From Bacteroidota bacterium (GTDB lineage Bacteria > Bacteroidota > Bacteroidia > Bacteroidales > GCA-2748055), in contig DAOVKJ010000002.1 in NCBI GenBank assembly GCA_030631845.1, forward strand, positions 1-55,405: a DNA stretch of 55,405 nt. Reading direction: 5' to 3'. The notes below the pieces were generated by a model. It was not told the origin of the DNA. It saw nothing but the letters and a program-made list of their open reading frames with translations, and searched no databases. Of the stretch, positions 2,102 to 48,991 are shown piece after piece; within the stretch, counting starts at the first letter, position 1; the number at the start of each line of letters is the position of its first letter. The position numbers and the translations under genes are program-made.

Positions 2102-2128
2102 TTTATTAACCATTAACCATTAACTTTT

Positions 2129-2881: not shown

Positions 2882-2884
2882 CCC

Positions 2885-5263: not shown

Positions 5264-5322
5264 AAGGAGTTAGTTTTTTAAAAAGACGAGCCAACTTTCC
5301 CGTTATTACAACTGCAAAACAT

Positions 5323-5330
5323 TAAATTTG
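5323..5330 (+). promoter_or_regulatory. candidate Bacteroidota -7 promoter box (TAAATTTG) for glyA
   Basis: Exact match to TAnnTTTG, ending 28 nt upstream of the glyA ATG in a 95-nt AT-rich divergent intergenic region. Confidence 0.4.
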
Positions 5331-5358
5331 GAAATATTTTTCAAAAACATCTACCACC

Positions 5359-6636
5359 ATGAAGAGAGATATCGATCTGTTTGAACTTATTGAGCATGAA
5401 CAGCAGCGCCAGAAAAGGGGCATTGAGCTGATTGCATCAGAAAATTTTGTCAGCACCCAGGTGATGGAGGCCATGGGTTCCTGTCTCACCAACAAATATG
5501 CCGAAGGCTACTCGGGACACCGTTATTACGGGGGGTGCGAGGTGATTGACAAGGTGGAGGATCTGGCCATTGAGAGGCTCTGTCAGCTCTATGGTGCCGA
5601 GTTTGCCAATGTGCAGCCGCATTCCGGGGCGCAGGCCAATATGGCTGTGTTCCTGACAGTGCTGGAACCGGGCGATACTTTTATGGGCCTCGACCTTTCG
5701 CATGGAGGTCACCTTTCGCATGGCTCTCCGGTCAACAGCTCTGGGATCCTGTACAGGGCGGTATCGTACGGACTGGATGAGAAGACAGGGCAGATCGATT
5801 ATGACGCCATGGAGGCAGTGGCTAAAAAGGAGCGGCCCAAAATGATCGTGGGCGGGGCCTCGGCCTATTCACGTGAATGGGACTATAAAAGAATGAGGGA
5901 GATTGCTGACGAGATTGGTGCCATATTGATGATCGATATGGCGCATCCGGCGGGATTGATTGCGGCCGGATTGCTCGATAACCCGCTGCCTTATGCACAT
6001 ATTGTAACCTCCACCACCCACAAAACACTTCGTGGGCCACGGGGAGGAATTATTCTGATCGGTAAAGATTTTGAGAACCCATGGGGCAGGGCCACAAAAA
6101 AGGGTACGATCCGCAAAATGTCGTCGCTGATCAACTCGGCAGTCTTCCCGGGAATCCAGGGCGGACCCCTGGAGCATATTATTGCTGCCAAGGCAGTGGC
6201 TTTTGGGGAGGCTCTTACCGACGAATTCAAATCCTACCAGGTCCAGGTGAAGAAGAATGCCACGGTAATGGCCGATGCCTTTATCCAGAAGGGATACAAG
6301 GTGGTCTCCGATGGAACCGATAACCACTCCATGCTGATCGACCTGCGGACCAGGGTAGAGGATATTACCGGGAAATTGGTGGAGAAGAACCTGGAGGAAG
6401 CCGATATCACGGTTAACAAAAACATGGTTCCCTTCGACTCCAGGTCGCCTTTCCAGACCAGCGGCATCAGGGTGGGAACGCCGGCCATTACCACTCGGGG
6501 GGTGAAGGAGGAGCTGATCCCCGGAATTGTGGAGCTGATGGACAGGGTTATTATGAACATTGATGATAAACTGTTGATTGAGAAGACGCGCAGGGAGGTG
6601 AATGAGATGATGGCCGATTACCCCATGTTTGCCTGA
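5359..6636 (+). CDS. glyA: serine hydroxymethyltransferase
   Basis: 425 aa. 'ELIASENF' and the PLP-lysine region '[14 protein letters not shown]' are diagnostic for SHMT. Confidence 0.97.
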
Positions 6637-17025: not shown

Positions 17026-17400
17026 ATGGATAAACTAGAGTTTCAGCCTACTCAGAAGACCCCGTACGTTTTGCTGGACCCCAATGGCAAGATTAAATTT
17101 AAAGGTAGGTCCATCCCGGAAGATGTATCACTCTTCTACGAGGATATACTTGACTGGATCATCGCCTTTGCCTCCTCGCCACCAGCGTTTACAGAGGTTG
17201 ATATTGAAATGGAATACCTGAACAGTGGTACTTCCAAGTATATGCTCAGGTTACTCAAAAAACTAAAGGAAGTTGATAACGATGGTTACGATCTGAAAAT
17301 CAACTGGGTATATGAGGAGGGCGATGATGATATCCTGGAGAGAGGAGAGTATTATGCTTCCATCCTCGATTTGAAAATCAGCTTCATCGAGATCGAATAG
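17026..17400 (+). CDS. DUF1987 / SiaC-like partner-switch protein
   Basis: 124 aa. 'TQKTPYVLLDPNGKIKFKGRSIPEDVSLFYEDILDWI' and 'YLNSGTSKYMLRLLKKL' match the DUF1987 pattern. I prefer the ATG at 17026. Confidence 0.8.
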   Translation: MDKLEFQPTQKTPYVLLDPNGKIKFKGRSIPEDVSLFYEDILDWIIAFASSPPAFTEVDIEMEYLNSGTSKYMLRLLKKLKEVDNDGYDLKINWVYEEGDDDILERGEYYASILDLKISFIEIE

Positions 17401-18489
17401 CTACTTTGTTTCCCTGTTTTTTTGCAATTGATTATCCAGGTATTTCCAGAATGCCACATGGAATAGATAGGAATCACTATTTTCTATGGCCTCTTGGAAA
17501 TTGATGGTGCTGTCACAACCGACGGGATGTTGAATAGATGGATCAAATAGTCCCGGTTTCTCCGGGTGGAACTGTATCCCCAGTACATTGGGGTACCGGG
17601 TGTGCTGGATCGCTTCAATAATCTTTCCATCCATGGAGGTGGCAGAAACTTCCCATCCCAATCCCAGCTTTTCGATGGCCTGATGGTGCGAACTGAGCAC
17701 CAGGGGCGCTGTACCCTTATTGAAACCAATCCCACTGGTGAGGATCATACTCTTTTCAAGGGCAACCCTGTGAAAGTGATAGGAGGTGGGATCTTCGCAC
17801 CCCGTGTTTAGATAATCCATGTAGTTGCGATGCATCTGGTCGGGTGGCAGATTCAGGATATCCTCTGCCTTCCATATCCCGTAAATTTCGGTGGGAATGT
17901 CCTGTACCATGGTTCCCCCGGTGGCCACACTCATGGTTTGCATTCCCAGGCAGATTCCATTGACCAGATACGTTTTCTTCTCTTCCAGGTAGGGTATCCA
18001 GTCCGTATCCTGACTGCCTCCCAGCAAGTGAAAAAGGTAAGATAGCTCCACATAGTGCCTGAAGGGATCTGTGACCCCCGTGAGCAGGTGAACCTCCTCT
18101 CCGTAACAAACAGGTGGAATATCGGGTCCGCCCATAAACAGGGCTCCATTGGAGCATTCAAAAAGTTTCCTGAACTGTCCGGTGGCAGTATTTTTCCGGA
18201 ATATGTTTTCTGGTCCCAGCTCCCCTTTGATCTCCCTGAGACTAAAATGGGTGGCACTGTGCAGATCAATATAGGCTTTGGCGTCGCTGTAATCATACCT
18301 TTCACCCTTGTGGTATACGCCCAGCAGGTGGTAGCCATCCAGTGAAAACAATCCTTCATCCACCAGTTTTTGAACAACTTCCAGGTTATAGGCGGTTGGG
18401 TGGAACATTAAAACGGTATCCTGCCCCACAGCGTAGAGGCTGGTGCAGAATACCAGGATCAGACCGGCAATACTTTTTCGGAATTTCAT
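17401..18489 (-). CDS. exported class-I glutamine amidotransferase-like / peptidase C26 (gamma-glutamyl hydrolase family)
   Basis: It has a signal peptide 'MKFRKSIAGLILVFCTSLYAVGQ', a nucleophile elbow 'GICLGMQ' and 'IQFHPE' supplying the His/Glu. Confidence 0.8.
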   Translation of the reverse strand: MKFRKSIAGLILVFCTSLYAVGQDTVLMFHPTAYNLEVVQKLVDEGLFSLDGYHLLGVYHKGERYDYSDAKAYIDLHSATHFSLREIKGELGPENIFRKNTATGQFRKLFECSNGALFMGGPDIPPVCYGEEVHLLTGVTDPFRHYVELSYLFHLLGGSQDTDWIPYLEEKKTYLVNGICLGMQTMSVATGGTMVQDIPTEIYGIWKAEDILNLPPDQMHRNYMDYLNTGCEDPTSYHFHRVALEKSMILTSGIGFNKGTAPLVLSSHHQAIEKLGLGWEVSATSMDGKIIEAIQHTRYPNVLGIQFHPEKPGLFDPSIQHPVGCDSTINFQEAIENSDSYLFHVAFWKYLDNQLQKNRETK

Positions 18490-18505
18490 TGACAGTTGGC
18501 TCGGG

Positions 18506-20833
18506 TTACTTAAGAATGGCAGAAAGTTGCTGAATAATACTATTCAGGTTGTCACCGGTCTCCTCGTCAAGGATTTTGAAACTCACATTTTCATTGTTGA
18601 CCTCCTGCAGGAAGTTTGAAGCAAGAATGGCCCTGGAGTAGTTGCTGTCTATCAGGTATTCCGAGTTTTTTACGGTGATTCCCTCCCTCACTTTCACCAC
18701 GTATTTCTTAAAATCTATGGTGGAGAAGAGGTCCTCCGTGTCGGGATAATCCTCCAGAAACAACATCTGTTTATTGGCCAGGTCGATTTTATTGTCGTAC
18801 TGCTCTTGCATCAGTTTTTCATGTACCAGCCTCTCTTCGGCATTACCGAAATTGAGAATGACATAGTCGATGCCCCAACCCATCAGGATATTGACCATCA
18901 TAGGGATGCTCTCTGCTCCTGAAGCAGGCAGGAAATAGCACTCTTTTTCGAAGCCGGTAAGTGCAACGACTGCTTTCATGAAATAGTAGGTAGCCAGATC
19001 CTTGACAATGACATTGTTGAAGGATTTGATAATCTCTTGCTGGCTCAGTCTTGCACCCATGGTGGAGTAGATGGGAGAGAGGGTGTCGGCCGTAGCCGAT
19101 TTGAGAGATCTCGCACTGTAGACCAGGGTTTCACTCTTCATATCGTCTTCGATGGCGCGCTGGACAGCCAGGATCCTGTATAACTTGTTTACATCGATCA
19201 GGTGGGGGGAGTGGGTGGTATAGATGATCTGTATCCGCTCCCGGATATCATCAAACACTTTAAGCACATCTTCCTGGGCTCTTGCATGCAGGCTAACTGC
19301 CGGTTCATCGATCAACAGCACCTTATCGTGCTTGCTCTTATCCATGGCGGTGGCCTTTAGCTCCAGAAAGAATGAGAGAAACCACCTTACCCCGCGACTC
19401 CGCTGTTTGGGGTAGAGCCGTTCCGACTCGTCTTTGATCCAAAACTCAATATAAGGCTTTCCGCTTTTTTCAGGATTGGTGTGGTCGTAGTGAGAGAGTT
19501 CAAAATTGATTTTAATCTTATTGTTCTTCCCCACATTCTGTCTCCAGAAATCCTGGAAATTGAGTGTGAGTTCCCCATTCAGGTTCTCAATCTTCTGTTT
19601 CAGGATTCTGCTGGAGGGCTGCTGGAAAAAAGAGTACTCCAGTCCGGTGATGGTTAGAAAATTAATGGCTGCTTTATACCCTTCTGCACGTTTGTTAGCC
19701 TTGATAATGTCTTCCAGGTCGATGCGGTTGGGAAGGAGAGAACTAAAATCTTCAAACATTTCAAAATCGGGAAGGATTTTAAAAATTTCTTCTGCAAGTT
19801 CTGTGGAGCTGTAGAATTCCTTCACTGATTCCAGCTCCGTCCGGGCTGCTTTAACGGCCTTTTCGATGGACATCCCTTCAAAGACAAATTCGAGGGAGAG
19901 TAAATGAATATGCTGCTCCTCGAGCAGTCCCGCTATTTCATCTTTAAGCTTCTCATTATCGGTCCTGAATATCTCCTCCCTGATCTCTGCCGCCCGCTGT
20001 TCCCGTTCAGAGGAGTACATTCCGGTCATCTGAAGTAACTGTTTCAGCTGCTCTTGCAAGAGGGCCAGCTCCTCTTTTTTCACAGCTATCTGCTCCTGGA
20101 TATCCTTCAGTTTCCTGCTAACCTTATTTTTTTCATCCAGTGCTTCCAGGATATCACTCTTCTCCTCCTGTTTTACTTTTTTCTGTTCAAGTGTCTCATT
20201 CAGCTTGAAAAACATCTCCTCTTCCAGTTCCAGCTCTTTCTTTAACTCCTCTTTTCTCTCCCTGGAAGGAAATTTCCTGGTGTTTCGCTTGATCTCATTT
20301 ATCCTGAGCCTGATTGTTTCTACCTTTTCGGCGGTCCACTCAGTCTCCTCTTTTGCTTTATTCAGGTTTTTTGAAGCGGTGGTTATGTCACGATTCAGGT
20401 ACTCAAGGTTCTCCATGACCTTCAGTTCCCTCTGCCTGAGATTGTCAAGAGTATCATTATAAAACTCCTGCAATTCATCTCCCATCTCCATATGGGAATC
20501 TATTTCATCTTCCCATCTTCTAGTGATAGAAACGGTTTCCACACTACTGATTAGTTTCCGGATTTCCGGATTCAACCTTCTTTTATCCAGGCGGTTCTCA
20601 ATATCGGCAAATTGAAATCTGAACTTGCAGGTCACCACTGGCAGTGAGAGGTCACTTCTGAGCATATCCTCAATCAGTCTTCCGTCATGGAAGGCCTTAA
20701 GCGCCTCCAGAATAGATGTTTTACCCGATTCGTTCTGACCAATCAGGCTGGTGATATTATCATGGGCCAGCTGGTGCCAGCCGGTATCCACAATGGATCT
20801 GAAGTTCTGAATTCTAAAAGAAACCAAATGCAT
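18506..20833 (-). CDS. OLD/AAA_15-type ABC ATPase with a long coiled-coil insert and a Toprim-like C-terminal domain (catalytic acidic residues not evident)
   Basis: 775 aa. Motifs are 'FRIQNFRSI' followed by Walker A 'GQNESGKTS', a K/E/L heptad-rich insert of about 220 aa, 'RSRGVRWFLSFFLEL', Walker B 'VLLIDEPAVSLH' and H-loop 'YTTHSPHL'. The last 170 aa or so have a beta-alpha-beta pattern. Confidence 0.7.
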   Translation of the reverse strand: MHLVSFRIQNFRSIVDTGWHQLAHDNITSLIGQNESGKTSILEALKAFHDGRLIEDMLRSDLSLPVVTCKFRFQFADIENRLDKRRLNPEIRKLISSVETVSITRRWEDEIDSHMEMGDELQEFYNDTLDNLRQRELKVMENLEYLNRDITTASKNLNKAKEETEWTAEKVETIRLRINEIKRNTRKFPSRERKEELKKELELEEEMFFKLNETLEQKKVKQEEKSDILEALDEKNKVSRKLKDIQEQIAVKKEELALLQEQLKQLLQMTGMYSSEREQRAAEIREEIFRTDNEKLKDEIAGLLEEQHIHLLSLEFVFEGMSIEKAVKAARTELESVKEFYSSTELAEEIFKILPDFEMFEDFSSLLPNRIDLEDIIKANKRAEGYKAAINFLTITGLEYSFFQQPSSRILKQKIENLNGELTLNFQDFWRQNVGKNNKIKINFELSHYDHTNPEKSGKPYIEFWIKDESERLYPKQRSRGVRWFLSFFLELKATAMDKSKHDKVLLIDEPAVSLHARAQEDVLKVFDDIRERIQIIYTTHSPHLIDVNKLYRILAVQRAIEDDMKSETLVYSARSLKSATADTLSPIYSTMGARLSQQEIIKSFNNVIVKDLATYYFMKAVVALTGFEKECYFLPASGAESIPMMVNILMGWGIDYVILNFGNAEERLVHEKLMQEQYDNKIDLANKQMLFLEDYPDTEDLFSTIDFKKYVVKVREGITVKNSEYLIDSNYSRAILASNFLQEVNNENVSFKILDEETGDNLNSIIQQLSAILK

Positions 20834-20843
20834 GTTTCCGGCT

Positions 20844-21647
20844 TTATATAAATCTTATTCCGAATATCAATATGTCGTCCACCTGGAACTCATCACCTTT
20901 CCACTTTGTCATCTGGCGGTCCAGCTCTTTTCGTTGCTCCTTCATGGTCCAATCCGATATCCTGATCAGTAATTCTCTGAACGGTCCATATTTGAATTTC
21001 TTGTTCTTGGGTCCGCCAAACTGATCGGGATAACCGTCAGAAAATAGGTATACGATATCGCCCGGCTTAAGTTGCAGTGTATGGTTGGTAAATGAATTTT
21101 CTTCTATTGCATCGATACCCACCGGCATTTTATCGGCCTTGATTTCGGTAAGCACTTTGTTGCGGACATGATAGAGCGGGTTGTTGGCTCCCGAAAACTG
21201 CAGTTCGCCTGATCTGGGGTGGAACACGCATAGGGCCATATCCATGGCATCTTTGTTTTCCAGTTCGTAACCCCGCTGGTGCAGTGCTTTCATCACCCGT
21301 TCGCGAAGCAGGTTCAGGATCCTGCTGGACCGGATGGGACCCCTGATACTGAGGATCTCATTGAGGAAGGAGACACCCATGATACTCATCAAAGCACCTG
21401 GTACTCCATGCCCGGTACAATCGCCGGCAGCTACTACGATATACTCTTCCTTTCGGGAACAGTAGTAGAAATCACCGCTTACAATATCCCGTGGCTGATG
21501 GAGAATAAAGAACTCTTTGAGCATATTCTCCATGTACTTATGGTTTGGCAGCACGGCTCGCTGTATGAAGCTGGCATATTTGAGGCTTGCCATCAGTTCC
21601 CTGCGTTGATTCAGCAGGTTTTCCCTTGAGAGTTTTGTTTCTTTCAA
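20844..21647 (-). CDS. stand-alone SpoIIE-type PP2C phosphatase
   Basis: 'RDIVSGDFYY', 'AAGDCTGHGVPGALMS', 'FSDGYPDQFGG' and 'DDILIFGIRF' are present. The start is either a TTG at 21647, which overlaps the upstream TGA, or the ATG at 21593. Confidence 0.85.
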   Translation of the reverse strand: MKETKLSRENLLNQRRELMASLKYASFIQRAVLPNHKYMENMLKEFFILHQPRDIVSGDFYYCSRKEEYIVVAAGDCTGHGVPGALMSIMGVSFLNEILSIRGPIRSSRILNLLRERVMKALHQRGYELENKDAMDMALCVFHPRSGELQFSGANNPLYHVRNKVLTEIKADKMPVGIDAIEENSFTNHTLQLKPGDIVYLFSDGYPDQFGGPKNKKFKYGPFRELLIRISDWTMKEQRKELDRQMTKWKGDEFQVDDILIFGIRFI

Positions 21648-24600
21648 TCTATGATAATTCTTAGTCCCATCACCAGGATATCGTCGATCTGACTGAGATT
21701 TCCCATCCAGTCCGACAATGATTTTTCCATGGCTGCACCCTGATCTTTCATTGGAACAGACTGCATTTCCAGGATTAGTTTTTTAAAGTTTCTCGACATA
21801 AACTTCTTCTTTGCCGGTCCGCCAAACTGATCAACGAATCCGTCAGAGAACATATATATGTTATATCCTTCATCTTTGAACATGGAGGCATGGAAAGGCT
21901 CCTTTTTTTCAGATATGCCGATGGGCATATGGTCGGCCCTGATCTGAAGCAACAGGTGTTTGTCATCATGGATAGCGCCCCTGGGCAGGTCCAGTTCCAC
22001 CCCCTTATTTAACTTTGTTTTTTCGCTTCGCTTTAGTTTTCTGACCAGGTATATGGGATTATAGGCACCTGAATATTGAAACTCATTGCTCTTCAGGTCA
22101 ATGGAGACCATGGCCAGGTCCATGCCATCTTTGGAGGAGTCCATACCTCTTTTACCCGACTGCTTGAGTGAGGTAATGACCTGCTCCCTCAACAAATCAA
22201 GGATCTCATTGGTGCCGGTAACCTTCGATTTGTTCACAATCTCGTCTATGAAAGTCATCCCCAGCATACTCATAAAGGCGCCCGGTACACCATGTCCTGT
22301 ACAATCGGCAGCCACAACCAGCAGCTTTTCATTGATGGATCCTATCCAGTAGAAATCACCACTCACAATATCTCTCGGCTTGAAGAGGATAAAATGTTCA
22401 ATGTGATGTTTATCCAATAGCTTTTGTGAGGGCAGCAGGGCCTGTTGGATTCTGCTGGCATATTCGATGCTGTCGGTGAGCTCCTCTTTCTGTTTCCTGA
22501 TCTTGGCAGTACGCTCTTCGATCACCAATTCCAACCTGATATTTTCCTGCTTAAGTCTGCGGGTATAGAGCTTGATAATGATATAAATCAGGAGAGCGGC
22601 AAGAATAAAGTAGACCGCATAGGCCAGGAAACTTGCATACCATGGGGTGAGAATAGTAAAGGACCAGTTGGAGGGAAGGCTCTCCATGCCATACACATTC
22701 CTGGCCTTTACGATCATGGTATAGGTGCCCCAATGCAGGTTGGTAAACTCCCTGAAAGGAACCTTACTCCAGGAGGACCATTCATTCTCAAATCCCAGCA
22801 ACTGATAGCTGTATTCCATCTCTTCCTCCTGTTCAAAGAAGGGAGCGGCCCATTTGAACCGGATGTGATTGAACCTGTAGTTGATCTGCGGTTCGGTACC
22901 TGGTTCCTGGGAATCACTTAACCTGTATGATCCATCCCGGCTCACCCTGAAGTTTGCACCCATAAAAATAACCGAATCACTTCCCAGGGTTACATTCCGG
23001 ATCAATGTGTGGAACTGAACGGTATCTTTTCGAGAGTACCCTTTGTCAAATTGGTAGAGCTTGTTTGATTTTCCAAACCAGACATCTCCCTCAGGATCAG
23101 TGTAGAAAACATCCACAGATGTATTCTCGAGCCGCTGAAATGATTTTTCCTGGATTACCTGGAGTACCCCATCTGTTTTGCTGGCCACCAGTTCGGTCCA
23201 CTCTCCGGCACAGTTTTCAAAAGAGAACCAGAAGTCACCATCAAGATCCTTGTGAAATGCCATCACCAGATTTTCACCCGGAGGCAGGACACTGTTATAG
23301 AAGGTATCCCTGTAGAAGGTATCCCTGAAGAAGTTATACCTGTAAAAACCGTTCCGGGTTCCCAGCAGCACTTCGTCCGTTTCAGGATCGAGGAATACAT
23401 GGTTGTTATCGTTGGAAGGCAAACCATACTTATGGTCCAAAAACTTTGCTGTTGCCTGGGCAGGAGGCTCCAAATCGATTCGGGTCACCATAAATTCTGA
23501 ACTGCCCCAGAAGTAACCATATTTATCAATACATTTCTTCTGTAGAATCTCATCATCGGGAAGCCTGCTTATCCGCATAAACTCCTCCCATCTGCCCCGC
23601 GAATACTCCAATCCAACCAACTGACTCTTTCCGGCATATAACCTGTTCTGATGTTTGGGATCCTGCAGCAGGAACCAGCCGGAATACTCCCCACTACCGG
23701 GTTCCTCTTTAGATGGAGTTACAATCAGGTCCTCCATCCTGGTGACATGCATTTGCTGGTCCACCACATAGATTCCATTCTCTGAGGAGGCCAGCAGAAA
23801 AGATCTGCGGGCCGAAGGGGTGAAGAGAAAAAGCTGGCGAATAATTTCACCGCCGATCACAGGTACCTCGATAAATGATGTCCCGGTGGATGTTGAACTT
23901 TTGTAATATAGTCCCCCGAATGTGGAGATAAACAACCGGCCATTGAACTGTTTGACATCGGTAATAAAGCCTTTAAAACCAGACATTTCGGTAAATACCC
24001 GGAAAGGATTTGAAGGTTCCAGCTTACTGACCCCCATAAAATTGGGAATCCATAACAGACCCGGTGCCTCCTTTTGATCGTTATAGTAGACAGAAGGCAC
24101 CTGTTCATCAATCAATCCTTCGTTTTCATTGATTATCTCACGGGCCTGACCCTCCCTGGTAAGGATGACCACACCGCTGTTCAGGGTCGATACCACAAAA
24201 TCGTCCTGAAATGGCCGGATGTCAGTGATATTACCCTCAATGAGCAAGTCATCCAGCTCCGGTTCGGCAAAATTTCTCTCAATGCTGCCCGATTGAGGAT
24301 TATAGAGGTAAAGCCCATAAAAAAAGGTGCCCATAAGGATCCGGGTTTCATCAAACTGCACCATCCCGGTAATGGTCATCTCTTTGAAGTAGTCCCCGCC
24401 TGGCATTTCAATAAGCCTGCCATCCTGGAACTTCATTAATCCCTTATCTAAATTGGAGACATAGAGGGTACCTTCCACCAGGAAGGAGTAGAGCGAATTC
24501 TCTGCTGTTTGCAGGATGTTTAACTGTTCACTGGAGGTGTCATAGATAAAGATATAGTTGAAGGAGCAGAAATAGACCTTCCCCTGGTGAAAATAGGTTC

Positions 24601-25006
24601 TCCTTACACCCCAAAAGGAGTATAGATTCTGATCGAGGGTGTCGGAGATGGACCTGTATTGCATCTCTCCATGTCTGTCCGGAGCCAGGAATCCAAATTC
24701 AGAGACAGCCCCCACATAGACCACTCCATTGTCGCCTGTTACCATGGAGAGGATCATGGGATCTTTAGGGACCAGGATTCTGCGCCACTCCACACCATCG
24801 TACTCCAGGACCCCTTTGTCGTTGTTTCCCACATAGATGATGCCGCGCGAATCCTGTGTGATGCACCAGTTTTGTTCGCTCCCCTTTGTGATGGCGTGTT
24901 GATAGTTGGTTACTATGGGGACCCCATTCCTGTTGGGCTGCGCAAACAGGATGTTTGTTGCCGGAAAGCAGAGAAGAAAAGCAAAAAGCAGGGATCGCTG
25001 GCCCAT
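21644..25006 (-). CDS. periplasmic propeller/Y_Y_Y sensor fused via one TM helix to a SpoIIE-type PP2C phosphatase
   Basis: 1120 aa. It has a signal peptide, repeated two-component-regulator-propeller-like blades, a Y_Y_Y-like 'YSYQLLGFENEWS...WGTYTMIVKARN' segment, the TM helix 'FLAYAVYFILAALLIYIII', a coiled coil and a PP2C domain ('AADCTGHGVPGAFMS', 'DDILVMGLRI'). Confidence 0.85.
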   Translation of the reverse strand: MGQRSLLFAFLLCFPATNILFAQPNRNGVPIVTNYQHAITKGSEQNWCITQDSRGIIYVGNNDKGVLEYDGVEWRRILVPKDPMILSMVTGDNGVVYVGAVSEFGFLAPDRHGEMQYRSISDTLDQNLYSFWGVRRTYFHQGKVYFCSFNYIFIYDTSSEQLNILQTAENSLYSFLVEGTLYVSNLDKGLMKFQDGRLIEMPGGDYFKEMTITGMVQFDETRILMGTFFYGLYLYNPQSGSIERNFAEPELDDLLIEGNITDIRPFQDDFVVSTLNSGVVILTREGQAREIINENEGLIDEQVPSVYYNDQKEAPGLLWIPNFMGVSKLEPSNPFRVFTEMSGFKGFITDVKQFNGRLFISTFGGLYYKSSTSTGTSFIEVPVIGGEIIRQLFLFTPSARRSFLLASSENGIYVVDQQMHVTRMEDLIVTPSKEEPGSGEYSGWFLLQDPKHQNRLYAGKSQLVGLEYSRGRWEEFMRISRLPDDEILQKKCIDKYGYFWGSSEFMVTRIDLEPPAQATAKFLDHKYGLPSNDNNHVFLDPETDEVLLGTRNGFYRYNFFRDTFYRDTFYNSVLPPGENLVMAFHKDLDGDFWFSFENCAGEWTELVASKTDGVLQVIQEKSFQRLENTSVDVFYTDPEGDVWFGKSNKLYQFDKGYSRKDTVQFHTLIRNVTLGSDSVIFMGANFRVSRDGSYRLSDSQEPGTEPQINYRFNHIRFKWAAPFFEQEEEMEYSYQLLGFENEWSSWSKVPFREFTNLHWGTYTMIVKARNVYGMESLPSNWSFTILTPWYASFLAYAVYFILAALLIYIIIKLYTRRLKQENIRLELVIEERTAKIRKQKEELTDSIEYASRIQQALLPSQKLLDKHHIEHFILFKPRDIVSGDFYWIGSINEKLLVVAADCTGHGVPGAFMSMLGMTFIDEIVNKSKVTGTNEILDLLREQVITSLKQSGKRGMDSSKDGMDLAMVSIDLKSNEFQYSGAYNPIYLVRKLKRSEKTKLNKGVELDLPRGAIHDDKHLLLQIRADHMPIGISEKKEPFHASMFKDEGYNIYMFSDGFVDQFGGPAKKKFMSRNFKKLILEMQSVPMKDQGAAMEKSLSDWMGNLSQIDDILVMGLRIIID
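23298..23327. repeat. perfect 15-nt tandem duplication inside the sensor-PP2C gene (RDTFY RDTFY)
   Basis: tagaaggtatccctg occurs twice back to back (23298-23312 and 23313-23327), in frame. Confidence 0.9.
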
Positions 25007-25053: not shown

Positions 25054-25500
25054 CTATTTCAGCAGGCGCAGATCAAAGATGCCACCTTTTACAATATAAC
25101 AGGGAGAGCCACACTCTTCATTGGCATTATATAGATGCATATCATCGGCATCAAAAGCCTCAATGACCCGGTTTCCCGATCGATACGTGGCACGGACCGT
25201 GTAGTTGGCGTCTATCTTTGAATAGAGATAAAACTCCTCATTAGTAGCGGTATCCTGCCAGTCGATCACACCCTCTTCATAGCTTCCCCGGTAAAATGTG
25301 AGGGGTACCGAATCATTTTCAGCATCAATGGTAAGGTAGATGATCAGGTTTGCGCTATCGGGTGCATAACCATAGCAATCTTCGCAATCCACCGACAGCA
25401 TCCAGTCTTCCGGTTCACATGCCGTAAATTTACCTGAAACCAGCACCAGGAGTGCAACTGCAAATAGTTTAGTATGAAATCTCTTTCCGGACATTTTCAT
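25054..25500 (-). CDS. small Cys-containing lipoprotein, unknown function
   Basis: 'MKMSGKRFHTKLFAVALLVLVSGKFTAC' is a lipoprotein-type signal. I chose the ATG at 25500, since the longest ORF would overlap the ankyrin gene by 100 nt. Confidence 0.55.
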   Translation of the reverse strand: MKMSGKRFHTKLFAVALLVLVSGKFTACEPEDWMLSVDCEDCYGYAPDSANLIIYLTIDAENDSVPLTFYRGSYEEGVIDWQDTATNEEFYLYSKIDANYTVRATYRSGNRVIEAFDADDMHLYNANEECGSPCYIVKGGIFDLRLLK

Positions 25501-26908
25501 TACTCTGGTTTGTGATTCTGATGAACAGTGTAATATTTGTCTTCCATGCCCCTTCAAGGAGTGTTCCAAATGTATAACGTTCGGCTCCTGCTTTTATTCC
25601 GGCAATATCCCCCTTCAGGTAGAGGCCGGCCGACAGGGCCAGAGAGTAGTTAACTTTCGGATGGTCGGTGACACCCCTGAAGCTTGGCATGGAGAGCATT
25701 CCATAGAGTCCGCCATAGGCGCCATATTCCATGCCCGATTGGTCGTGCAGGATTGAAAAATTCTTTCCCCCTCCAAGGGTCCACACCCACCGTGACTCCC
25801 TGTATTGGTGTGTCAGCAGTTCTTCTACTTCAATCTGCACCTTCCTGTAAACGGGGCGAAAGTCGATACCGGTTTCAGCAAAAAAACCGAACTTACGATC
25901 CACCAGCGAGATCCGGACCTGCATCATATGTTCGTTGCCTCTGAAAGAGTTGCCCCACCCCAGATTGAACTCTGAAAACCGGGGTCCGGGAGAGGGGGAG
26001 GCTCCGGCTGTTTTTAAAAGCGTGAGAATCTTTGTTTCGCCCTGCTGACGGGCAAGATCATACAGATTTTCGCCAGATTTAATGAGATGATTTACATTGG
26101 CACCGCTATCTATCAGTAGTTTGGCAATTGTGTCTTGCCCACTGAGAACGGCGTGAGCCAGGGGGGTATAATTCTGTTTGTTGACCCTTTCCAGTGCTGC
26201 TCCTTTTTCAAGCAGTAAGCGGGTTATCCTGAGCTCTCCCTGTTGAGCGGCAATCATAAGGGGCGTATTGTTCTGCTTGTCGGGACCATCCGGATCGAGC
26301 CCGTTCTGCAACAGTATATCGGCTGTCTCAATGTGACCGAAGTAGACAGCTGTCATCAGGGCCCTGTTGCCATCTTTGTCACTGATGGTGTCTGAGGCAC
26401 CATAGAAGAGAAGCAGGTCAGCTATTTCATAGTTATTTAGAGCTGCCGCATATAGCAAGGCAGATCCCTGGTAACTGTCACGATGATCCGGGTCGGCCCC
26501 TTTTTCCAGAAGGAAGCATGTCACATCAAAGTGACCGTTGAGCACTGCAATCAGCAGGGGAGTGGTCTCCTCCATAAAGGTTAATTCCGGGTCGGCACCA
26601 TTCAGAACCAGTAGTTTGACCAGGAGCGCATCGCCGCTTTCTGCAGCAAACATCAGAGCGGTCATTCCCCCTTCCGCTTTTGCATTGGGATCGGCCCCCC
26701 GCTTAAGAAGCATCAGTACCGCATCGGGATTCACCTTCAAAACCGATTCAACCAGGTTCCAATCGTCCTCTCCCGCTCTGAAATATGAGGTGTCCACTAT
26801 CTCTCCCATCACTTCATCCTGGGCAAACATATCAGGGCCAGAAAGAGCAGCCAAAAGACCTCCTGTCAGCAAAAAGATGCTTATCCTGATGATTGCTCTT
26901 CTATCCAC
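25469..26908 (-). CDS. exported ankyrin-repeat protein with a C-terminal beta-barrel-like domain
   Basis: It has a GTG start, a signal peptide, about 8 ankyrin repeats ('G.TALM.AA..G....V..LL..GADP') and a 165-aa beta-rich tail ending in an aromatic residue ('...KEISY'). Confidence 0.85.
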   Translation of the reverse strand: MDRRAIIRISIFLLTGGLLAALSGPDMFAQDEVMGEIVDTSYFRAGEDDWNLVESVLKVNPDAVLMLLKRGADPNAKAEGGMTALMFAAESGDALLVKLLVLNGADPELTFMEETTPLLIAVLNGHFDVTCFLLEKGADPDHRDSYQGSALLYAAALNNYEIADLLLFYGASDTISDKDGNRALMTAVYFGHIETADILLQNGLDPDGPDKQNNTPLMIAAQQGELRITRLLLEKGAALERVNKQNYTPLAHAVLSGQDTIAKLLIDSGANVNHLIKSGENLYDLARQQGETKILTLLKTAGASPSPGPRFSEFNLGWGNSFRGNEHMMQVRISLVDRKFGFFAETGIDFRPVYRKVQIEVEELLTHQYRESRWVWTLGGGKNFSILHDQSGMEYGAYGGLYGMLSMPSFRGVTDHPKVNYSLALSAGLYLKGDIAGIKAGAERYTFGTLLEGAWKTNITLFIRITNQSNENVRKEISY

Positions 26909-27338: not shown

Positions 27339-29525
27339 TTAGTTGCCCAGTTCCAGCTGGTTACGCACCAGGTTGAAATAGTACCCTTTCTTTGCTATCA
27401 GGGCATTGTGCTTGCCCTCCTCTACGATCTTGCCCCTTTCAAGTACAATAATCTGGTCCGCATTTTTTACGGTGCTCAGGCGGTGTGCTATAATCAGCAC
27501 TGTTTTACCCATGAAAACCATTTGAAGGTTATCCATAATACGCCTCTCATTATTGGCATCCAGAGCACTGGTGCCTTCGTCAAGGAAAAGGAATTCAGGA
27601 TTTTTGTAGATGGCTCTTGCAATAAGGATCCGTTGTTCCTCTCCTCCGCTGAGGGTGAGACCCTCCTGTCCGATCACTGTATTGTAACCCAGTGGCAGCT
27701 GGTCGATAAAATCGTCCATACACGCCATCTTTGCAGCATATAACAGCTGGTCGGCTTTTATCTCATGTTCGCCAAGTGCTATATTCCTGGCAATGGTGTC
27801 GGAGAAGATATAACCATCCTGCATCACCACACCGCACTGGCTTCTCCACAGATCGGGCGACATCATCTGTATGTTCATATCGCCCGCTCTGATATCTCCT
27901 TTTGCGGGTGGGTAGAATCCCAGCAATAACTTAAGCAGCGTTGTTTTTCCACTACCACTGATACCAACCAGCGCTGTAACTGTATCCTTTTTCAGTGTCA
28001 GGTTGATACCCTCCAACACATTTCGTCGAATAGCGCCAGGATATGTGAAATCCAGATTATTTACCACCAGCTTCTCTATGGCAGGAAGTACTGTTACACC
28101 TGTTTCACGCTGATACTCATCTTCGGAGTCGTGTATTTCTCCCAATCGCTCCAGGCTGATTTTGGCATCCTGAGCCCTGTGAAAGAAGGAGATCATCTGT
28201 TCGATGGGACCATTTAATTGGCCCAGTATATAGCTGATTGCCAGTAGTGTACCAAGAGTCAGATTGCCATTCAGCACTGCGATGGCTGCGGTCACATTGA
28301 TCAGGATGTTTTTGGTTTCATTAATAAATACGCCCCCTGCTTCCTGATACTGGTTGAGGGAGAGCGATTTCATATTGACCTTGAAGAGACCTGCCTGGAT
28401 ATCCTTCCACTCCCACTGACTGGATCGCTCTGCATTGTTCAGTTTGATCTCCCTGATCCCGTGAATGATCTGAATCAGTTTGCTCTGATTTTCGGCCATT
28501 TTTGAAAAGTACTTCTGATCCAGCGTTCTTCTACGCTTCATAAAGATGAAGATCCATATGAAATAGAGCAGGCCGCCTGCAAGGAAGATCAGCAGAATCT
28601 TCAGGCTGTAGATTGCCAGGATGATGGCAAATACTACCAGGTTGACCATGGAGAAGAGGATGGTGAGCGAAGAGGTGGTCATAAATGTTTCGATCCTGCG
28701 GTGGTCGCCTATACGCTGCAGGATATCACCGGTGAGTTTGGTGTCGAAGAATCCCACAGGGAGCTTCATTAGTTTTGAGAGGAAATCGGAAATAAGTGCA
28801 ATATTGACACGTGCACTCAGGTGAAGCAGGATCCATCTGCGGATAAAGTCAATCCCCATCTGGGAGATGATCAGCACAAACTGGAAAAGCAGCACCAGGT
28901 AGATAAAGGGAAGATCCTGGTTGGTGATCCCGAAATCGACTATGGACTGGAACAGAAAAGGGAGCAGGAACTGGATAATGCTTCCAATGATCAAACCCAG
29001 CAGGAGGTGGTATACATAGCGCCGGTAAGGAGCCAGGTACCGGAACAGGTACCTGAAACCGGTTTTCTTTATGGGCTCGTCTTCCTGGTTCAGAAAGTCG
29101 GGTGTGGGTTGAAGCAGCAGGGCGGATCCTTTGGCTTCTCCCTCCTGGCGGGTACTGATCCAGCCCTTCAGGAACTCCTCTTTCGTGTAGACGGCCTGTC
29201 CAAATGCAGGATCGGACACATATACCTTATCCTTGCGGATCTTATATACCACCACAAAATGCTTCTGCTGCCAGTGAACAATCACCGGCAGCGGTGCCTC
29301 CTCCTGAAGACGTTCCCATGTGAGAGAGACGCCCATGGTCTGCATCCCAATCTCCTCTGCGCCCCTGGCGATACCAAGCATCGATACTCCCTCTCTGGTG
29401 AGGTGTGATTTCTCCCTGAGTGTTTGAAGGGTAAAATGTTTGCCGTAATGACGGGCCACCATTCTCAGACAGGTGGGTCCGCAGTCCATGGCATCAAGTT
29501 GCTTGTAGAAAGGGAATGAGGGCAT
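27339..29525 (-). CDS. peptidase C39 domain-containing ABC exporter (PCAT, bacteriocin/peptide exporter type)
   Basis: 728 aa. It has the catalytic-Cys motif 'QLDAMDCGPTCL', six TM helices, Walker A 'GISGSGKTT', the signature 'LSGGEEQR' and Walker B 'FLFLDEGTSALD'. Confidence 0.92.
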   Translation of the reverse strand: MPSFPFYKQLDAMDCGPTCLRMVARHYGKHFTLQTLREKSHLTREGVSMLGIARGAEEIGMQTMGVSLTWERLQEEAPLPVIVHWQQKHFVVVYKIRKDKVYVSDPAFGQAVYTKEEFLKGWISTRQEGEAKGSALLLQPTPDFLNQEDEPIKKTGFRYLFRYLAPYRRYVYHLLLGLIIGSIIQFLLPFLFQSIVDFGITNQDLPFIYLVLLFQFVLIISQMGIDFIRRWILLHLSARVNIALISDFLSKLMKLPVGFFDTKLTGDILQRIGDHRRIETFMTTSSLTILFSMVNLVVFAIILAIYSLKILLIFLAGGLLYFIWIFIFMKRRRTLDQKYFSKMAENQSKLIQIIHGIREIKLNNAERSSQWEWKDIQAGLFKVNMKSLSLNQYQEAGGVFINETKNILINVTAAIAVLNGNLTLGTLLAISYILGQLNGPIEQMISFFHRAQDAKISLERLGEIHDSEDEYQRETGVTVLPAIEKLVVNNLDFTYPGAIRRNVLEGINLTLKKDTVTALVGISGSGKTTLLKLLLGFYPPAKGDIRAGDMNIQMMSPDLWRSQCGVVMQDGYIFSDTIARNIALGEHEIKADQLLYAAKMACMDDFIDQLPLGYNTVIGQEGLTLSGGEEQRILIARAIYKNPEFLFLDEGTSALDANNERRIMDNLQMVFMGKTVLIIAHRLSTVKNADQIIVLERGKIVEEGKHNALIAKKGYYFNLVRNQLELGN

Positions 29526-29557: not shown

Positions 29558-30301
29558 TTATTTTAACAATACCTTTTCCAATTTGATGGCATCGGATTGG
29601 TAGGGTCCGTGCTGTTCAGTTAAAGGATGGATCTTCTCCAGGGCCGCTTCCCGACTGCCCGATTTCAGGTGAGCCAGGGCGATGTACCAGGTAATGGCCT
29701 GGTCTGGAAGATCCATGCTATCGGGTTCGTTAACCACGATCATACCCATGACCTCATCCTGACGGTCCAGTTCAATGGCCGACAACAGGTAATAAAGCTG
29801 GAGCTGTCTATTCTCCCTCTCTTCAGAGATCCGGTCCGAGAGCAGTTTCATGGATCGCTGGTAATTCCCTTGGCGGTAATGCAGGATTCCGGGTTCAGAC
29901 TCTCCCCGTGTATCCTGGTAGTACGCAAGCACTACCGGGTCCCTGGCAGGATCATAATACCTGGCGAGTACTCTTTCGTTCCCGGGATGGCTCAAAAGAG
30001 TGGAGAGGATGATGGCAAGAGCGCATGCTGCCGCCATAGGGATATACCACCGGGTCCGCAACCACATTTTTCGGGGTTCCGTTAACGGAAGTTCGTGGCT
30101 CATGGCCTTTTGCAGTTTTGTCCGGAAAACCTCTTCGTCGCGTTTCTGCAGCTGATCACGGATCAAGTCATATGCTGCCGATTGTTGCTCAAACTCTCTC
30201 TTTAGCTCGCCATTGGATTCCAGCTCCTTTTCGAAGGAGGAGGCCTCTTCCCGGCTGAGGTCGCCCGACAAATATTTAATAATAAGATCAACGTAGCTCA
30301 T
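29558..30301 (-). CDS. anti-sigma-like single-pass membrane protein with a TPR-like periplasmic domain
   Basis: It overlaps the sigma gene by 14 nt. It has the N-terminal 'YLSGDLSREEASSFEKEL' helix typical of Bacteroidota anti-sigma N-domains and one TM helix ('IPMAAACALAIILSTLL'). Confidence 0.5.
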   Translation of the reverse strand: MSYVDLIIKYLSGDLSREEASSFEKELESNGELKREFEQQSAAYDLIRDQLQKRDEEVFRTKLQKAMSHELPLTEPRKMWLRTRWYIPMAAACALAIILSTLLSHPGNERVLARYYDPARDPVVLAYYQDTRGESEPGILHYRQGNYQRSMKLLSDRISEERENRQLQLYYLLSAIELDRQDEVMGMIVVNEPDSMDLPDQAITWYIALAHLKSGSREAALEKIHPLTEQHGPYQSDAIKLEKVLLK

Positions 30302-30866
30302 TTTTCAGTCGTTTAAATAGGGGGTCGTTCACAATCCTCTTTATCAGGCTTTTTTTGCATCTGTATTTTCTGTCTGCCGTGTGGTGAAGATCCTTGTAAT
30401 TCATTGCAATACGGATATCTTCCACACTAAAATTGTTGAAATACATAGAGAGGATCTTCTGGCAATCCTTACTTAGCTCCTCAAAATGTTTATTGAACAG
30501 ATTGGTCAGGTGATTCTGAAGCAAGGGGTCATCGGCAGCTCCGGGATCATTTACCACAAGAGGTTGTTGTCGCAGTTTCTCGGCTCGCTGCAGATACTTT
30601 TTGCGCTCCTGCATCCAGATATTCTTGCAGATGGCGTAGAGGTAGGTTCCAAATTTACAGCTTAACTCCAGCTCGTCCGATTTGATGCGGTTGTATACAA
30701 TGATCATTGCATCCTGGAATATATCCCTGGCCTGCTCCCTCGATCCCTGGTTGTGGATAATGTATCCTTCAATGATGGGATAGTAGGTTTCATACACATG
30801 CCGGAGGAGAGGCGAATCGTGGTTTCTGATTCCTTTGATCAAATCGTTATTGGAAGGGAGTTTCAT
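30288..30866 (-). CDS. RNA polymerase sigma-70 family factor (ECF-like, regions 2 and 4)
   Basis: Region 2 is 'ARDIFQDAMIIVY...TYLYAICKNIWMQERKK' and the region 4 HTH is 'CQKILSMYFNNFSVEDIRIAMNY'. Confidence 0.8.
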   Translation of the reverse strand: MKLPSNNDLIKGIRNHDSPLLRHVYETYYPIIEGYIIHNQGSREQARDIFQDAMIIVYNRIKSDELELSCKFGTYLYAICKNIWMQERKKYLQRAEKLRQQPLVVNDPGAADDPLLQNHLTNLFNKHFEELSKDCQKILSMYFNNFSVEDIRIAMNYKDLHHTADRKYRCKKSLIKRIVNDPLFKRLKNELR

Positions 30867-33720: not shown

Positions 33721-35145
33721 ATGATCTACGATCCGCAGGTTTATGCCATTGAAGATAGAGCGATGGTCCCTTTTATTTCTGAAAAGGAGATCGAGAAGAC
33801 CTTAAAAGGGGCACAACCCACCAGAGAACTGGTGCGCGAAATTATTGCCAAATCATTAAACAAGAAGCGGTTGACTATGGAGGAGACTGCTCTGCTGGTT
33901 AATGCAACGGACCCGGAACTTGTAGAGGAGATCAAGGCGGGTGCCAGGAAGCTGAAGGAGCAGGTGTACGGGAAGCGGATTGTACTGTTTGCTCCCCTCT
34001 ATGTGGGGAACCTCTGCATCAACAACTGTGAGTATTGTGGTTTCCGAGCCTCCAACAAAAGCCAGAAACGCACTACGCTGACCCATCAGGAACTGATTTC
34101 GGAGGTGGAGATGCTGGAAGATATGGGACAGAAAAGGCTGATCCTGGTTTATGGTGAACACCCCAAATATACCCCCGAGTTTATTGCCGATACTGTACAA
34201 ACTGTCTACAAGGTGAAGAAGGGGAACGGGGAGATTCGCCGTGTCAATATCAATGCGGCACCCCTCGATATCCAGGGATTCAAAACTGTGCTGGATGCCG
34301 GGATAGGCACCTACCAGGTCTTCCAGGAGACCTACCATCGTGGTGCCTACTCCATATATCATACAGGGGGAGTGAAGAGGGATTATGACTGGAGGATATC
34401 TGCGCTGGACCGCGCCCAGGAGGCAGGTATTGATGATGTGGGGATCGGGGCACTGTTTGGATTGTATGACTGGCGTTTTGAGGTGCTGGGACTGATCCGG
34501 CATGTGAACCACCTGGAGGCGGTTTACAATGTGGGTCCACATACCATCTCTTTTCCAAGGCTCCAAAAGGCTTCCAATGTAAAATATGACCAGAAGTGGA
34601 TCGTTAGTGATGCGGACTTCACCCGCATGGTGGCCATACTACGGCTTGCAGTTCCATATACCGGCCTGATCCTGACGGCCCGTGAGCCGGCTGCCATTCG
34701 TGATGAGGTGCTTCAGTTCGGAGTTTCACAGATCGATGGGGGAACCAAAATCGAAATGAAAGGATATACCGAGAAGGATCAGCATCAGGACCTGGATGCT
34801 GAGCAGTTTCAGATCAGCGACAACCGCTCCCTGGCCGAAGTGATGGAGGAGTTGATCGAGAACGATTACCTGCCCTCTTTCTGTACTGCCTGCTATCGTA
34901 CCGGGCGGACCGGTGAACATTTTATGGAGTTTTCCGTACCCGGATTTATTAAGCGGTACTGCACCCCCAATGCCATCCTTACCATGGCCGAGTATCTGGA
35001 GGACTATGCACAGAACGGGACCAAAGAGAAGGGGTACCAATTGATTCAGAAGAACCTGAGGGAGATGGAGCAGGATCAGTTTAAGACAAGGCTGGAGGAG
35101 CGGCTGGAGCTTGTGAAAAGAGGCGAACGTGACCTCTATTTCTGA
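33721..35145 (+). CDS. hydG: [FeFe]-hydrogenase maturase HydG (radical SAM tyrosine lyase)
   Basis: 474 aa. It has the radical SAM 'CINNCEYCGF' motif and the HydG-specific C-terminal cluster motif 'CTACYRTGRTGEHFMEFSVPGFIKRYC', which ThiH lacks. Confidence 0.9.
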   Translation: MIYDPQVYAIEDRAMVPFISEKEIEKTLKGAQPTRELVREIIAKSLNKKRLTMEETALLVNATDPELVEEIKAGARKLKEQVYGKRIVLFAPLYVGNLCINNCEYCGFRASNKSQKRTTLTHQELISEVEMLEDMGQKRLILVYGEHPKYTPEFIADTVQTVYKVKKGNGEIRRVNINAAPLDIQGFKTVLDAGIGTYQVFQETYHRGAYSIYHTGGVKRDYDWRISALDRAQEAGIDDVGIGALFGLYDWRFEVLGLIRHVNHLEAVYNVGPHTISFPRLQKASNVKYDQKWIVSDADFTRMVAILRLAVPYTGLILTAREPAAIRDEVLQFGVSQIDGGTKIEMKGYTEKDQHQDLDAEQFQISDNRSLAEVMEELIENDYLPSFCTACYRTGRTGEHFMEFSVPGFIKRYCTPNAILTMAEYLEDYAQNGTKEKGYQLIQKNLREMEQDQFKTRLEERLELVKRGERDLYF

Positions 35146-48977: not shown

Positions 48978-48991
48978 GCTCTTCTCTCTTT

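Follow-up and report, generated by a model that had tools for sequence, protein, structure and literature searches.

A sensorless SiaA-type phosphatase paired with an OLD-family ATPase in Bacteroidales chromosomes, and its possible place in a Sia-like switch

Organization of the locus

The window analyzed here is a stretch of 55,405 nucleotides (nt) from a Bacteroidota bacterium of the order Bacteroidales (assembly GCA_030631845.1, contig DAOVKJ010000002.1, positions 1 to 55,405 of the forward strand), in which four closely packed minus-strand genes encode two PP2C phosphatases, an ATPase and a hydrolase, and a convergent plus-strand gene encodes a SiaC-like protein. In their order on the minus strand the four are a sensor-PP2C (21644-25006; 1120 amino acids, aa; Pfam Reg_prop, Y_Y_Y and SpoIIE), a short PP2C (20844-21647; 267 aa; Pfam SpoIIE, E = 1.3e-21), the ATPase (18506-20833; 775 aa; Pfam AAA_15 and AAA_21) and a C26 hydrolase (17401-18489; 362 aa; Pfam Peptidase_C26, E = 1.3e-26, and GATase, with a signal peptide). 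The SiaC-like gene lies at 17026-17400 on the plus strand (124 aa; ATG at 17026; Pfam SiaC PF09345, DUF1987, E = 1.7e-30). Domains were assigned with Pfam, NCBIfam and PADLOC profiles.

The stop of the sensor-PP2C and the start of the short PP2C share a TTGA overlap (GAT-TGA/TTG-A), the TTG start codon of the latter being the earliest possible start in its frame. The gap from the short PP2C to the ATPase measures 10 nt (AGCCGGAAAC) and that from the ATPase to the C26 hydrolase 16 nt, and the TAG stop of the SiaC-like gene and the C26 stop (CTA on the plus strand) abut with a spacer of 0 nt (17398-17403). No terminator-like hairpin was found at this last junction, so the two transcripts must overlap in antisense or read through mutually. 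An earlier reading of the sequence, hereafter the original prediction, had described these four packed genes, their junctions and the SiaC-like gene facing them end to end, and all of its coordinates and junctions were confirmed against the sequence.

A conserved phosphatase-ATPase pair

The original prediction regarded the four genes as a candidate module and made its case depend on a recurrent linkage between PP2C genes and homologs of the ATPase. One genome per GTDB species was scanned, yielding at least 468 relatives of the ATPase, of which 80 loci were kept; 80 further loci were taken from metagenomes, and 168 related loci were considered overall, their neighbors being compared by tblastn with the window proteins and by neighbor clustering. 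The only universal linkage across the 168 loci was a sensorless PP2C followed by the ATPase. In the GTDB set, all 80 loci with sufficient sequence to tell have the PP2C directly 5' of the ATPase, among them a clade of 43-46% identity that has nothing else in common, and the PP2C adjoins the ATPase in 129-131 of the 134 loci, from GTDB and metagenomes together, that have enough upstream sequence. The median gap between the two genes is 10 nt across related loci, and the pairwise protein distances of PP2C and ATPase are tightly correlated (r = 0.97). Seen in about 130 of 134 assessable loci, the PP2C-then-ATPase arrangement is not due to chance, and the linkage on which the original prediction had staked itself is thus amply present.

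The relatives fall into two clades, one including the window (56-96% ATPase identity) and a second, more distant one (40-57%). In the window clade the entire neighborhood is syntenic, in the order C39 ABC transporter, SUI1, ankyrin protein, lipoprotein, sensor-PP2C, PP2C, ATPase, C26, SiaC, TsaD and TamB. The second clade retains the PP2C-then-ATPase order, the gap being 6-12 nt in most loci and below about 90 nt in nearly all, and its flanks vary by sub-clade and consist of housekeeping genes (G6PD, 6PGL, SSB, thioredoxin, SDR).

The remaining genes of the locus are less constant. The sensor-PP2C occurs in 50 of 54 assessable window-clade loci and in none of the second clade; it is cleanly absent, with ample upstream sequence, from L001, L144, L150 and L157, and apparently absent on the shorter contigs L003, L028 and L052, where the PP2C comes immediately after the lipoprotein gene. 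The C26 hydrolase, an exported protein resembling class-I glutamine amidotransferases with the catalytic motifs GICLG and FHPE, is found in 45 of 58 assessable window-clade loci and is absent from at least 13 loci in which both flanks are available, the SiaC-like gene then directly following the ATPase (e.g., L013, L014, L037, L044). The SiaC-like gene is present in all 58 assessable window-clade loci, including those without the sensor-PP2C. The proposed four-gene module does not hold, because the C26 gene is dispensable and the sensor-PP2C is clade-confined and lost from at least four close relatives: the robust unit is the PP2C-ATPase pair, smaller than four genes, and the C26 hydrolase is an optional passenger, even though its spacing here implies co-transcription.

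The original prediction knew of no described system with such a combination. PADLOC gave no match for either PP2C, and no description of a PP2C-OLD pairing was found in a literature search outside which lay the main ABC-ATPase classification (Krishnan et al., 2020), so that the claim of novelty stands within that scope.

Several further observations concern individual loci of this set. The 80 loci of the GTDB scan come from Bacteroidales or other Bacteroidota metagenome-assembled genomes (MAGs), bar one contig labeled Chlorobiota, and a protein-database match bears a Nitrospiraceae label; these few members (L067, P0151, P0163) could reflect horizontal transfer or mis-binned MAG contigs. A single locus, L117 (about 1400-2360), has its PP2C and ATPase about 970 nt apart. 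Two metagenomic loci, L115 and L135, encode 772-aa members with an intact Toprim (VED, LLDDD) and the usual flanks and no upstream PP2C, which looks like a secondary loss. Two sub-clades of the second clade carry a DNA-related gene facing the ATPase convergently, a DnaQ/RNase_T-GIY-YIG-UvrC_M fusion in one (L086, 12359-13738, minus strand) and an SSB in the other (L088, 13092-13442, minus strand), which may be coincidence or the sign of a DNA-linked role.

An OLD-type ATPase that has lost its nuclease site

The ATPase family is uniform in size (769-784 aa). The best sequence match of the window protein in the PDB (phmmer) is the OLD protein of Thermus scotoductus (6p74), residues 505-684 aligning with 272-456. 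When nine proteins of the locus were compared with the PADLOC profiles, as the original prediction had suggested, the ATPase matched generic ABC-ATPase models only (AriA, Old and PtuA), whereas nothing was returned for the PP2Cs, the C26 hydrolase or the SiaC-like protein. An AlphaFold2 (AF2) model built from 33 sequences (predicted local distance difference test, pLDDT, 84; predicted template modeling score, pTM, 0.71) had GajA (8u7i, 1.3e-11) and 6p74 (3.2e-9) as its top Foldseek matches, followed by SMC, Rad50 and RecN heads and PtuA. Sequence and predicted fold together place the protein in the OLD family.

The nucleotide-binding motifs are intact and nearly invariant. Walker A (GQNESGKT; 20717-20740, minus strand, as are all features of this protein) is identical in 75 of 76 family sequences, the final residue differing once; Walker B (VLLIDEP; 19301-19321) keeps its LIDEP core in 76 of 76, with conservative variation in the flanking residues, and the SRG motif within the signature-like QRSRGVRW (19382-19405) and the THSP core of the H-loop YTTHSP (19205-19222) are likewise found in 76 of 76. 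Residues 119-338 (19820-20479) form a coiled-coil insert, modeled as helices 119-187, 191-270, 276-318 and 323-338, which in the AF2 model occupies the position of the OLD dimerization domain; the coiled coil extends over about 220 residues, the insert measures about 270 residues here vs. 70-140 in short relatives, and residues 119-338 contain no cysteine and no CxxC that could form a zinc hook.

The original prediction had given the ATPase a Toprim tail, and in this respect it was half right: a Toprim fold is present, but its catalytic metal-A residues are gone. The domain comprises residues 596-775 (18509-19048), in which, by the alignment with 6p74, the Thermus OLD ligands E377, D431 and D433 correspond to K611, F662 and N664, all three metal-A ligands being replaced: K611 (19001-19003) stands in place of the glutamate, and F662-G663-N664 (18842-18850) in place of the DxD motif. 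Every window-clade sequence has K at the first ligand position (R once) and nearly all have NFGN at the second, while short and phage-borne relatives retain E plus DDD or DDE. In P2 Old the corresponding ligands are E398, D453 and D455, and mutating them abolishes killing (PMC7049728). Nuclease activity is thus predicted to be lost from the missing ligands, and with its Toprim site destroyed the window ATPase would be unable to act like P2 Old, GajA or AriB. The catalytically dead domain is nonetheless still under strong purifying selection, the ratio of nonsynonymous to synonymous substitution rates (dN/dS) being 0.056; the ATPase core has 0.023 and the coiled coil 0.109.

The four described classes of OLD proteins are set by their partner genes, respectively none, a UvrD-like helicase, a retron reverse transcriptase and, for the fourth, the split AriA/AriB. 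The window ATPase falls outside each of these definitions and lacks the catalytic residues that characterize the family, while keeping its fold. It resembles class 1 (P2 Old, Thermus 6p74) in having, on one polypeptide, an N-terminal ABC ATPase, an insert at the dimerization position and a C-terminal Toprim, but differs in its ligands (K611/F662/N664), in the coiled coil of about 220 residues, in being paired with a PP2C instead of standing alone and in its vertically inherited housekeeping context. The class 2 protein GajA of Gabija is its top structural match and likewise an ABC ATPase sensor coupled to an effector; no UvrD/PcrA-like helicase GajB was found in the window neighborhood or among Pfam-labeled relatives. 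No reverse-transcriptase domain (class 3) was found among the window neighbors, and the window has no Rfam match. The AriA of PARIS (class 4) is again an ABC ATPase sensor coupled to an effector and matches the window ATPase near Walker B and the H-loop, but in the window ATPase and Toprim are fused in one 775-aa protein, DUF4435 AriB is missing and the partner is a phosphatase.

The two phosphatases and the SiaC-like protein

The original prediction had considered the SiaC-like neighbor relevant to the operon, and this view gained support from the nature of the phosphatases, both SiaA-type, as well as from the constant presence of SiaC in the window clade. The NCBIfam SiaA model is the top model for both PP2Cs, below its equivalog cut-off, with 158 bits for the sensor-PP2C and 174 bits over model positions 400-657 for the short one, whose only PDB sequence match is the PP2C domain of SiaA (6k4e, E = 5e-31). 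Judged by these matches, both PP2Cs are SiaA-type. Catalytic and metal-binding motifs are intact in the two proteins (in the short PP2C, SGDF, DCTGHG, DAMD, SDGYPDQ and VDDIL). The short PP2C consists of an N-terminal linker helix of about 50 residues and the PP2C domain, with no sensor; the sensor-PP2C has a signal peptide, about 770 periplasmic residues containing the propeller and Y_Y_Y region (22643-24940, minus strand, from Pfam), one transmembrane helix (22565-22642, minus strand), the same linker and a PP2C domain (21659-22330, minus strand) about 40% identical to the short PP2C.

The SiaC-like protein aligns with SiaC of Pseudomonas aeruginosa (6kko, E = 1e-10), the phospho-acceptor T68 corresponding to S67 in YLNSGTS, and the segment EYLNSGTSKY is invariant in 60 distinct orthologs. 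In P. aeruginosa it is the unphosphorylated form of SiaC that binds SiaD, contacting its coiled-coil stalk through N67/T68/S69, and DUF1987 proteins have been proposed to regulate adjacent proteins (PMC8457831). Within the window clade SiaC is tied to the core pair because it is retained even in relatives that lost the sensor-PP2C, and it is the likely substrate of both PP2Cs. A search for further homologs of the SiaC-like protein returned, among the 120 matches listed, identities of 65-96%; the two examined (65% and 70%) lie in the same synteny as the window, and the search was set aside as independent evidence since nothing independent was gained from it.

The locus recalls the P. aeruginosa SiaABCD system in combining a membrane-sensor SiaA-type PP2C with a DUF1987 SiaC whose acceptor segment is conserved. 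Unlike it, the window locus has neither the SiaB kinase nor the SiaD diguanylate cyclase among the scanned window open reading frames (ORFs), and it has a second, sensorless SiaA paralog, a propeller/Y_Y_Y sensor and an OLD-type ATPase at the position of the output enzyme.

Evolutionary origin and inheritance

When 1.84 billion cluster representatives were searched exhaustively, 441 matched the ATPase at E ≤ 1e-30, most of which are 570-650 aa long, have no long insert and possess an intact Toprim (E + DDD/DDE + GIED); long forms account for about 20 representatives. In a neighbor-joining tree the PP2C-linked sequences form one clade whose sisters are long forms with intact Toprim, all of these being nested among the short forms. 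Relatives that have an intact Toprim and no PP2C occur among the structural genes of prophages (L081, L082), in a restriction-modification cassette with a DNA methylase on one side and a ResIII gene on the other (L123), and after a helicase with a NOV_C domain (L105). Of the loci with a degenerate Toprim, 96 of 96 have a PP2C within 1 kb (adjacent in 95, about 970 nt upstream in L117), while the eight loci without a PP2C all have an intact Toprim, an association between Toprim state and PP2C presence with a Fisher p of 5e-5, not corrected for phylogeny.

Within the PP2C-linked family, inheritance follows the chromosome. ATPase identity tracks that of TsaD (r = 0.85) and TamB (r = 0.92), and synteny with these two genes is conserved from 56% to 96% ATPase identity. 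No member of the PP2C-linked clade was found in plasmid and phage collections, where the best matches had less than 31% identity over half the protein, and in this clade neither patchy spread, nor mobile context, nor defence-gene neighbors were observed, divergence being clock-like. These comparisons of sequence and synteny indicate that the pair is vertically inherited in Bacteroidales chromosomes with housekeeping flanks. The pattern is that of an OLD lineage which gained a PP2C partner, became fixed in the chromosome and thereafter lost its nuclease ligands, a loss confined to loci with the PP2C, and the simplest explanation for this gain of PP2C and loss of Toprim would be an effector swap.

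Discussion

We tentatively propose that the window locus encodes a Sia-like partner-switching circuit with two phosphatase inputs, in which the output of the ATPase would be a phosphatase instead of a nuclease; we hold this to be possible, and stop short of calling it probable. In the window clade, a paralogous sensor-PP2C has been added upstream and a SiaC-type phosphoprotein convergently downstream, and the Toprim site has been destroyed. A periplasmic signal would turn on the sensor-PP2C, while the ATPase would read a cytoplasmic signal and, presumably in physical contact with the sensorless PP2C, govern it in trans through an ATP-driven conformational cycle. Both phosphatases would then dephosphorylate the SiaC-like protein at about Ser67, and the unphosphorylated switch protein might bind a helical or coiled-coil target, maybe the arm of the ATPase, as SiaC does the SiaD stalk.

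Circuits of Bacillus offer an analogy for both features, since in RsbQ-RsbP and RsbT-RsbU a PP2C is encoded beside its trans-activator and the two PP2Cs, RsbP and RsbU, converge on one phosphoprotein, RsbV. The window likewise has a PP2C without sensing of its own beside a proposed activator, and two phosphatase branches that may act on one switch protein; in Bacillus, however, an alpha/beta hydrolase and a GHKL kinase serve as activators and a STAS protein as substrate, and no sigma-factor output is evident in the window.

A number of points weigh against the proposed circuit. The case for the direction of control is one of evolutionary logic, the neighbor-joining tree is crude, and all carriers are uncultured MAGs. 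About a quarter of the assessable PP2C-linked loci (24 of 119) retain an apparently intact Toprim, so that the swap is not complete across the family. In the second clade a hidden Markov model (HMM) search found no SiaC-like ORF within 6-10 kb of the pair, hence SiaC may not be the ancestral substrate, and in the window clade its persistence is indistinguishable from mere synteny with TsaD and TamB. Moreover, neither a SiaB-like kinase nor a GGDEF protein or other obvious output gene was found in the scanned ORFs of the 55-kb window or in the conserved synteny.

The evolutionary pattern favors the ATPase as a regulator of the PP2C rather than as a gated effector, but the reverse direction, which the original prediction had suggested, deserves consideration. 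The ATPase would then be the regulated effector in the place of SiaD, its ATP-dependent activity, which could be DNA clamping or tethering or the remodeling of a partner, being gated by the PP2Cs directly or through the SiaC-like switch acting on the coiled coil. The position of the ATPase in the operon is indeed that of the output enzyme SiaD in siaABCD, SiaC is known to target coiled-coil stalks in neighboring proteins and is always adjacent in the window clade, the coiled coil of the ATPase extends over about 220 residues, and its ATPase motifs are invariant and its Toprim-like domain conserved. With the nuclease site gone, however, the ATPase has no recognizable effector chemistry, the ancestral pair occurs without SiaC nearby, there is no linked kinase, and the decay of Toprim only alongside the PP2C is left unexplained; we therefore regard this direction of control as distinctly unlikely. 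That the two genes have no functional coupling at all, their adjacency being only inherited synteny, is scarcely credible: the synteny of the window clade from TamB to the C39 ABC transporter does mean that adjacency alone says little there, yet in the second clade the flanks change by sub-clade and the PP2C-then-ATPase order persists at short gaps, and the Toprim state covaries with the presence of the PP2C.

Two further explanations draw on the relatives of the ATPase. The original prediction had seen the locus as a possible infection sensor, and it could be an OLD-type anti-phage or abortive-infection system that became fixed in the chromosome, in which the ATPase would be the infection sensor and the PP2Cs would control or carry out the response. 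This would suit an ATPase that belongs to the OLD family by sequence and fold, that has its nearest relatives outside the clade in prophages and a restriction-modification cassette, and some of whose second-clade members keep an intact Toprim; PADLOC candidate systems containing a PP2C are also mentioned in the literature. The framing is nevertheless weak and very unlikely to be correct, considering that PADLOC is silent on the PP2Cs, the C26 hydrolase and SiaC, that TsaD/TamB synteny spans 56-96% identity with clock-like divergence, that the flanks are housekeeping genes wherever examined, that the clade is missing from plasmid and phage collections, that the window clade has lost its nuclease ligands, and that uniform length and strong purifying selection are unlike fast-evolving defence genes. 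Overall, the locus does not look like a classical defence cassette, and a defence role for the window clade is unlikely, though members with an intact Toprim may have one. The ATPase might instead serve chromosome or DNA maintenance in the manner of Rad50/SMC or of Cran1, tuned by Ser/Thr phosphorylation through the PP2C, the SiaC-like gene being an unrelated neighbor. It shares with SMC and Rad50 a long coiled coil and an ABC head, SMC, Rad50 and RecN heads rank after OLD in Foldseek, and the convergent gene is an SSB or a DnaQ-GIY-YIG exonuclease in two sub-clades. A precedent exists in Cran1, an OLD-family ATPase of Sulfolobales that is vertically inherited in one order, is apparently not antiviral and needs its ATPase, not its nuclease (PMC12796447). 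Like Cran1, the family studied here is a conserved, vertically inherited OLD lineage within one order; Cran1, though, is an active nickase, standalone and archaeal, whereas here the nuclease ligands are lost and the PP2C partner is obligatory. No hinge, CxxC hook, Mre11/SbcD-like or kleisin partner was found in the window or its relatives, the DNA-related neighbors are limited to sub-clades, both PP2Cs are specifically SiaA-type and SiaC is present in 100% of window-clade loci, and a maintenance function is in our view just as improbable.

Returning to the two-input Sia-like circuit, a more ambitious form of it would have an OLD immune-type ATPase domesticated as a trans-acting, ATP-driven sensor for a PP2C, its nuclease having been swapped for a phosphatase and then decayed, and the pair wired into a Sia-type switch next to a periplasmic sensor-PP2C. 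We consider this version rather unlikely. If true, it would be the first OLD/ABC defence sensor feeding Ser/Thr phospho-signaling, and the pair might still relay cytoplasmic nucleic-acid or infection cues to physiology.

The classification of OLD-family ATPases follows the genes they are partnered with, and nearly all of these proteins are read as anti-phage nucleases. The family reported here defines a further class, partnered with a PP2C, provided with a long coiled coil and chromosomally fixed in Bacteroidales, in which the nuclease decays only beside the phosphatase. Its members offer a natural series, from intact through partly decayed Toprim to the dead K/F/N state, for the repurposing of a defence sensor-effector, and the window locus would bring the Sia-type (DUF1987) partner switch into a new phylum and give it a partner other than a diguanylate cyclase. 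Such genes should accordingly not be annotated as "OLD family endonuclease" or counted as defence in Bacteroidales MAGs.

Other features of the window

Directly 5' of the sensor-PP2C lies a conserved gene for a small protein (25054-25569, minus strand; orf171), with a likely start at MKMSGKRF... and a lipoprotein signal ending in Cys, which stays next to the PP2C even in loci without the sensor-PP2C. Considered as a candidate kinase or output protein, it was discarded as a small lipoprotein with no family match. In many window-clade loci, though not in the window, a 4-kb insert separates this gene from the sensor-PP2C; it encodes, divergently, a gingipain-like C25 peptidase of about 1350 aa with a type IX secretion system (T9SS) sorting domain (in L009 at 1623-5687, minus strand) and was judged unrelated. 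Further upstream, an ankyrin-repeat protein of 479 aa (25469-26908, minus strand) is syntenic with SUI1 and a C39-peptidase ABC exporter (27339-29525). It matches the PADLOC candidate PDC-M72A (E = 1.5e-46), as well as MzaA and Legionella Ank effector models, and the PDC-M72A match is probably driven by the repeats.

The rest of the window is ordinary chromosome, with genes for glycerol kinase, aquaporin, SHMT, TamB, TsaD, SUI1, cysteine synthase, an extracytoplasmic function (ECF) sigma factor, efflux pumps and [FeFe]-hydrogenase maturases. A scan of the window with Rfam gave 0 matches, and a scan for sigma-70 promoters and terminators gave counts below the shuffle expectation and was uninformative, since Bacteroidota promoters differ. 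At 29558-30866 (minus strand) the ECF-type sigma factor (Sigma70_r2) is followed by a slightly overlapping 247-aa protein with a weak TPR match, the two being probably a sigma/anti-sigma pair. In the regions 33721-35145 and 47892-51663, HydF (48992-50218) and radical-SAM HydE/HydG-like genes adjoin an aspartate ammonia-lyase/fumarase-type gene, which points to an anaerobe with an [FeFe]-hydrogenase.

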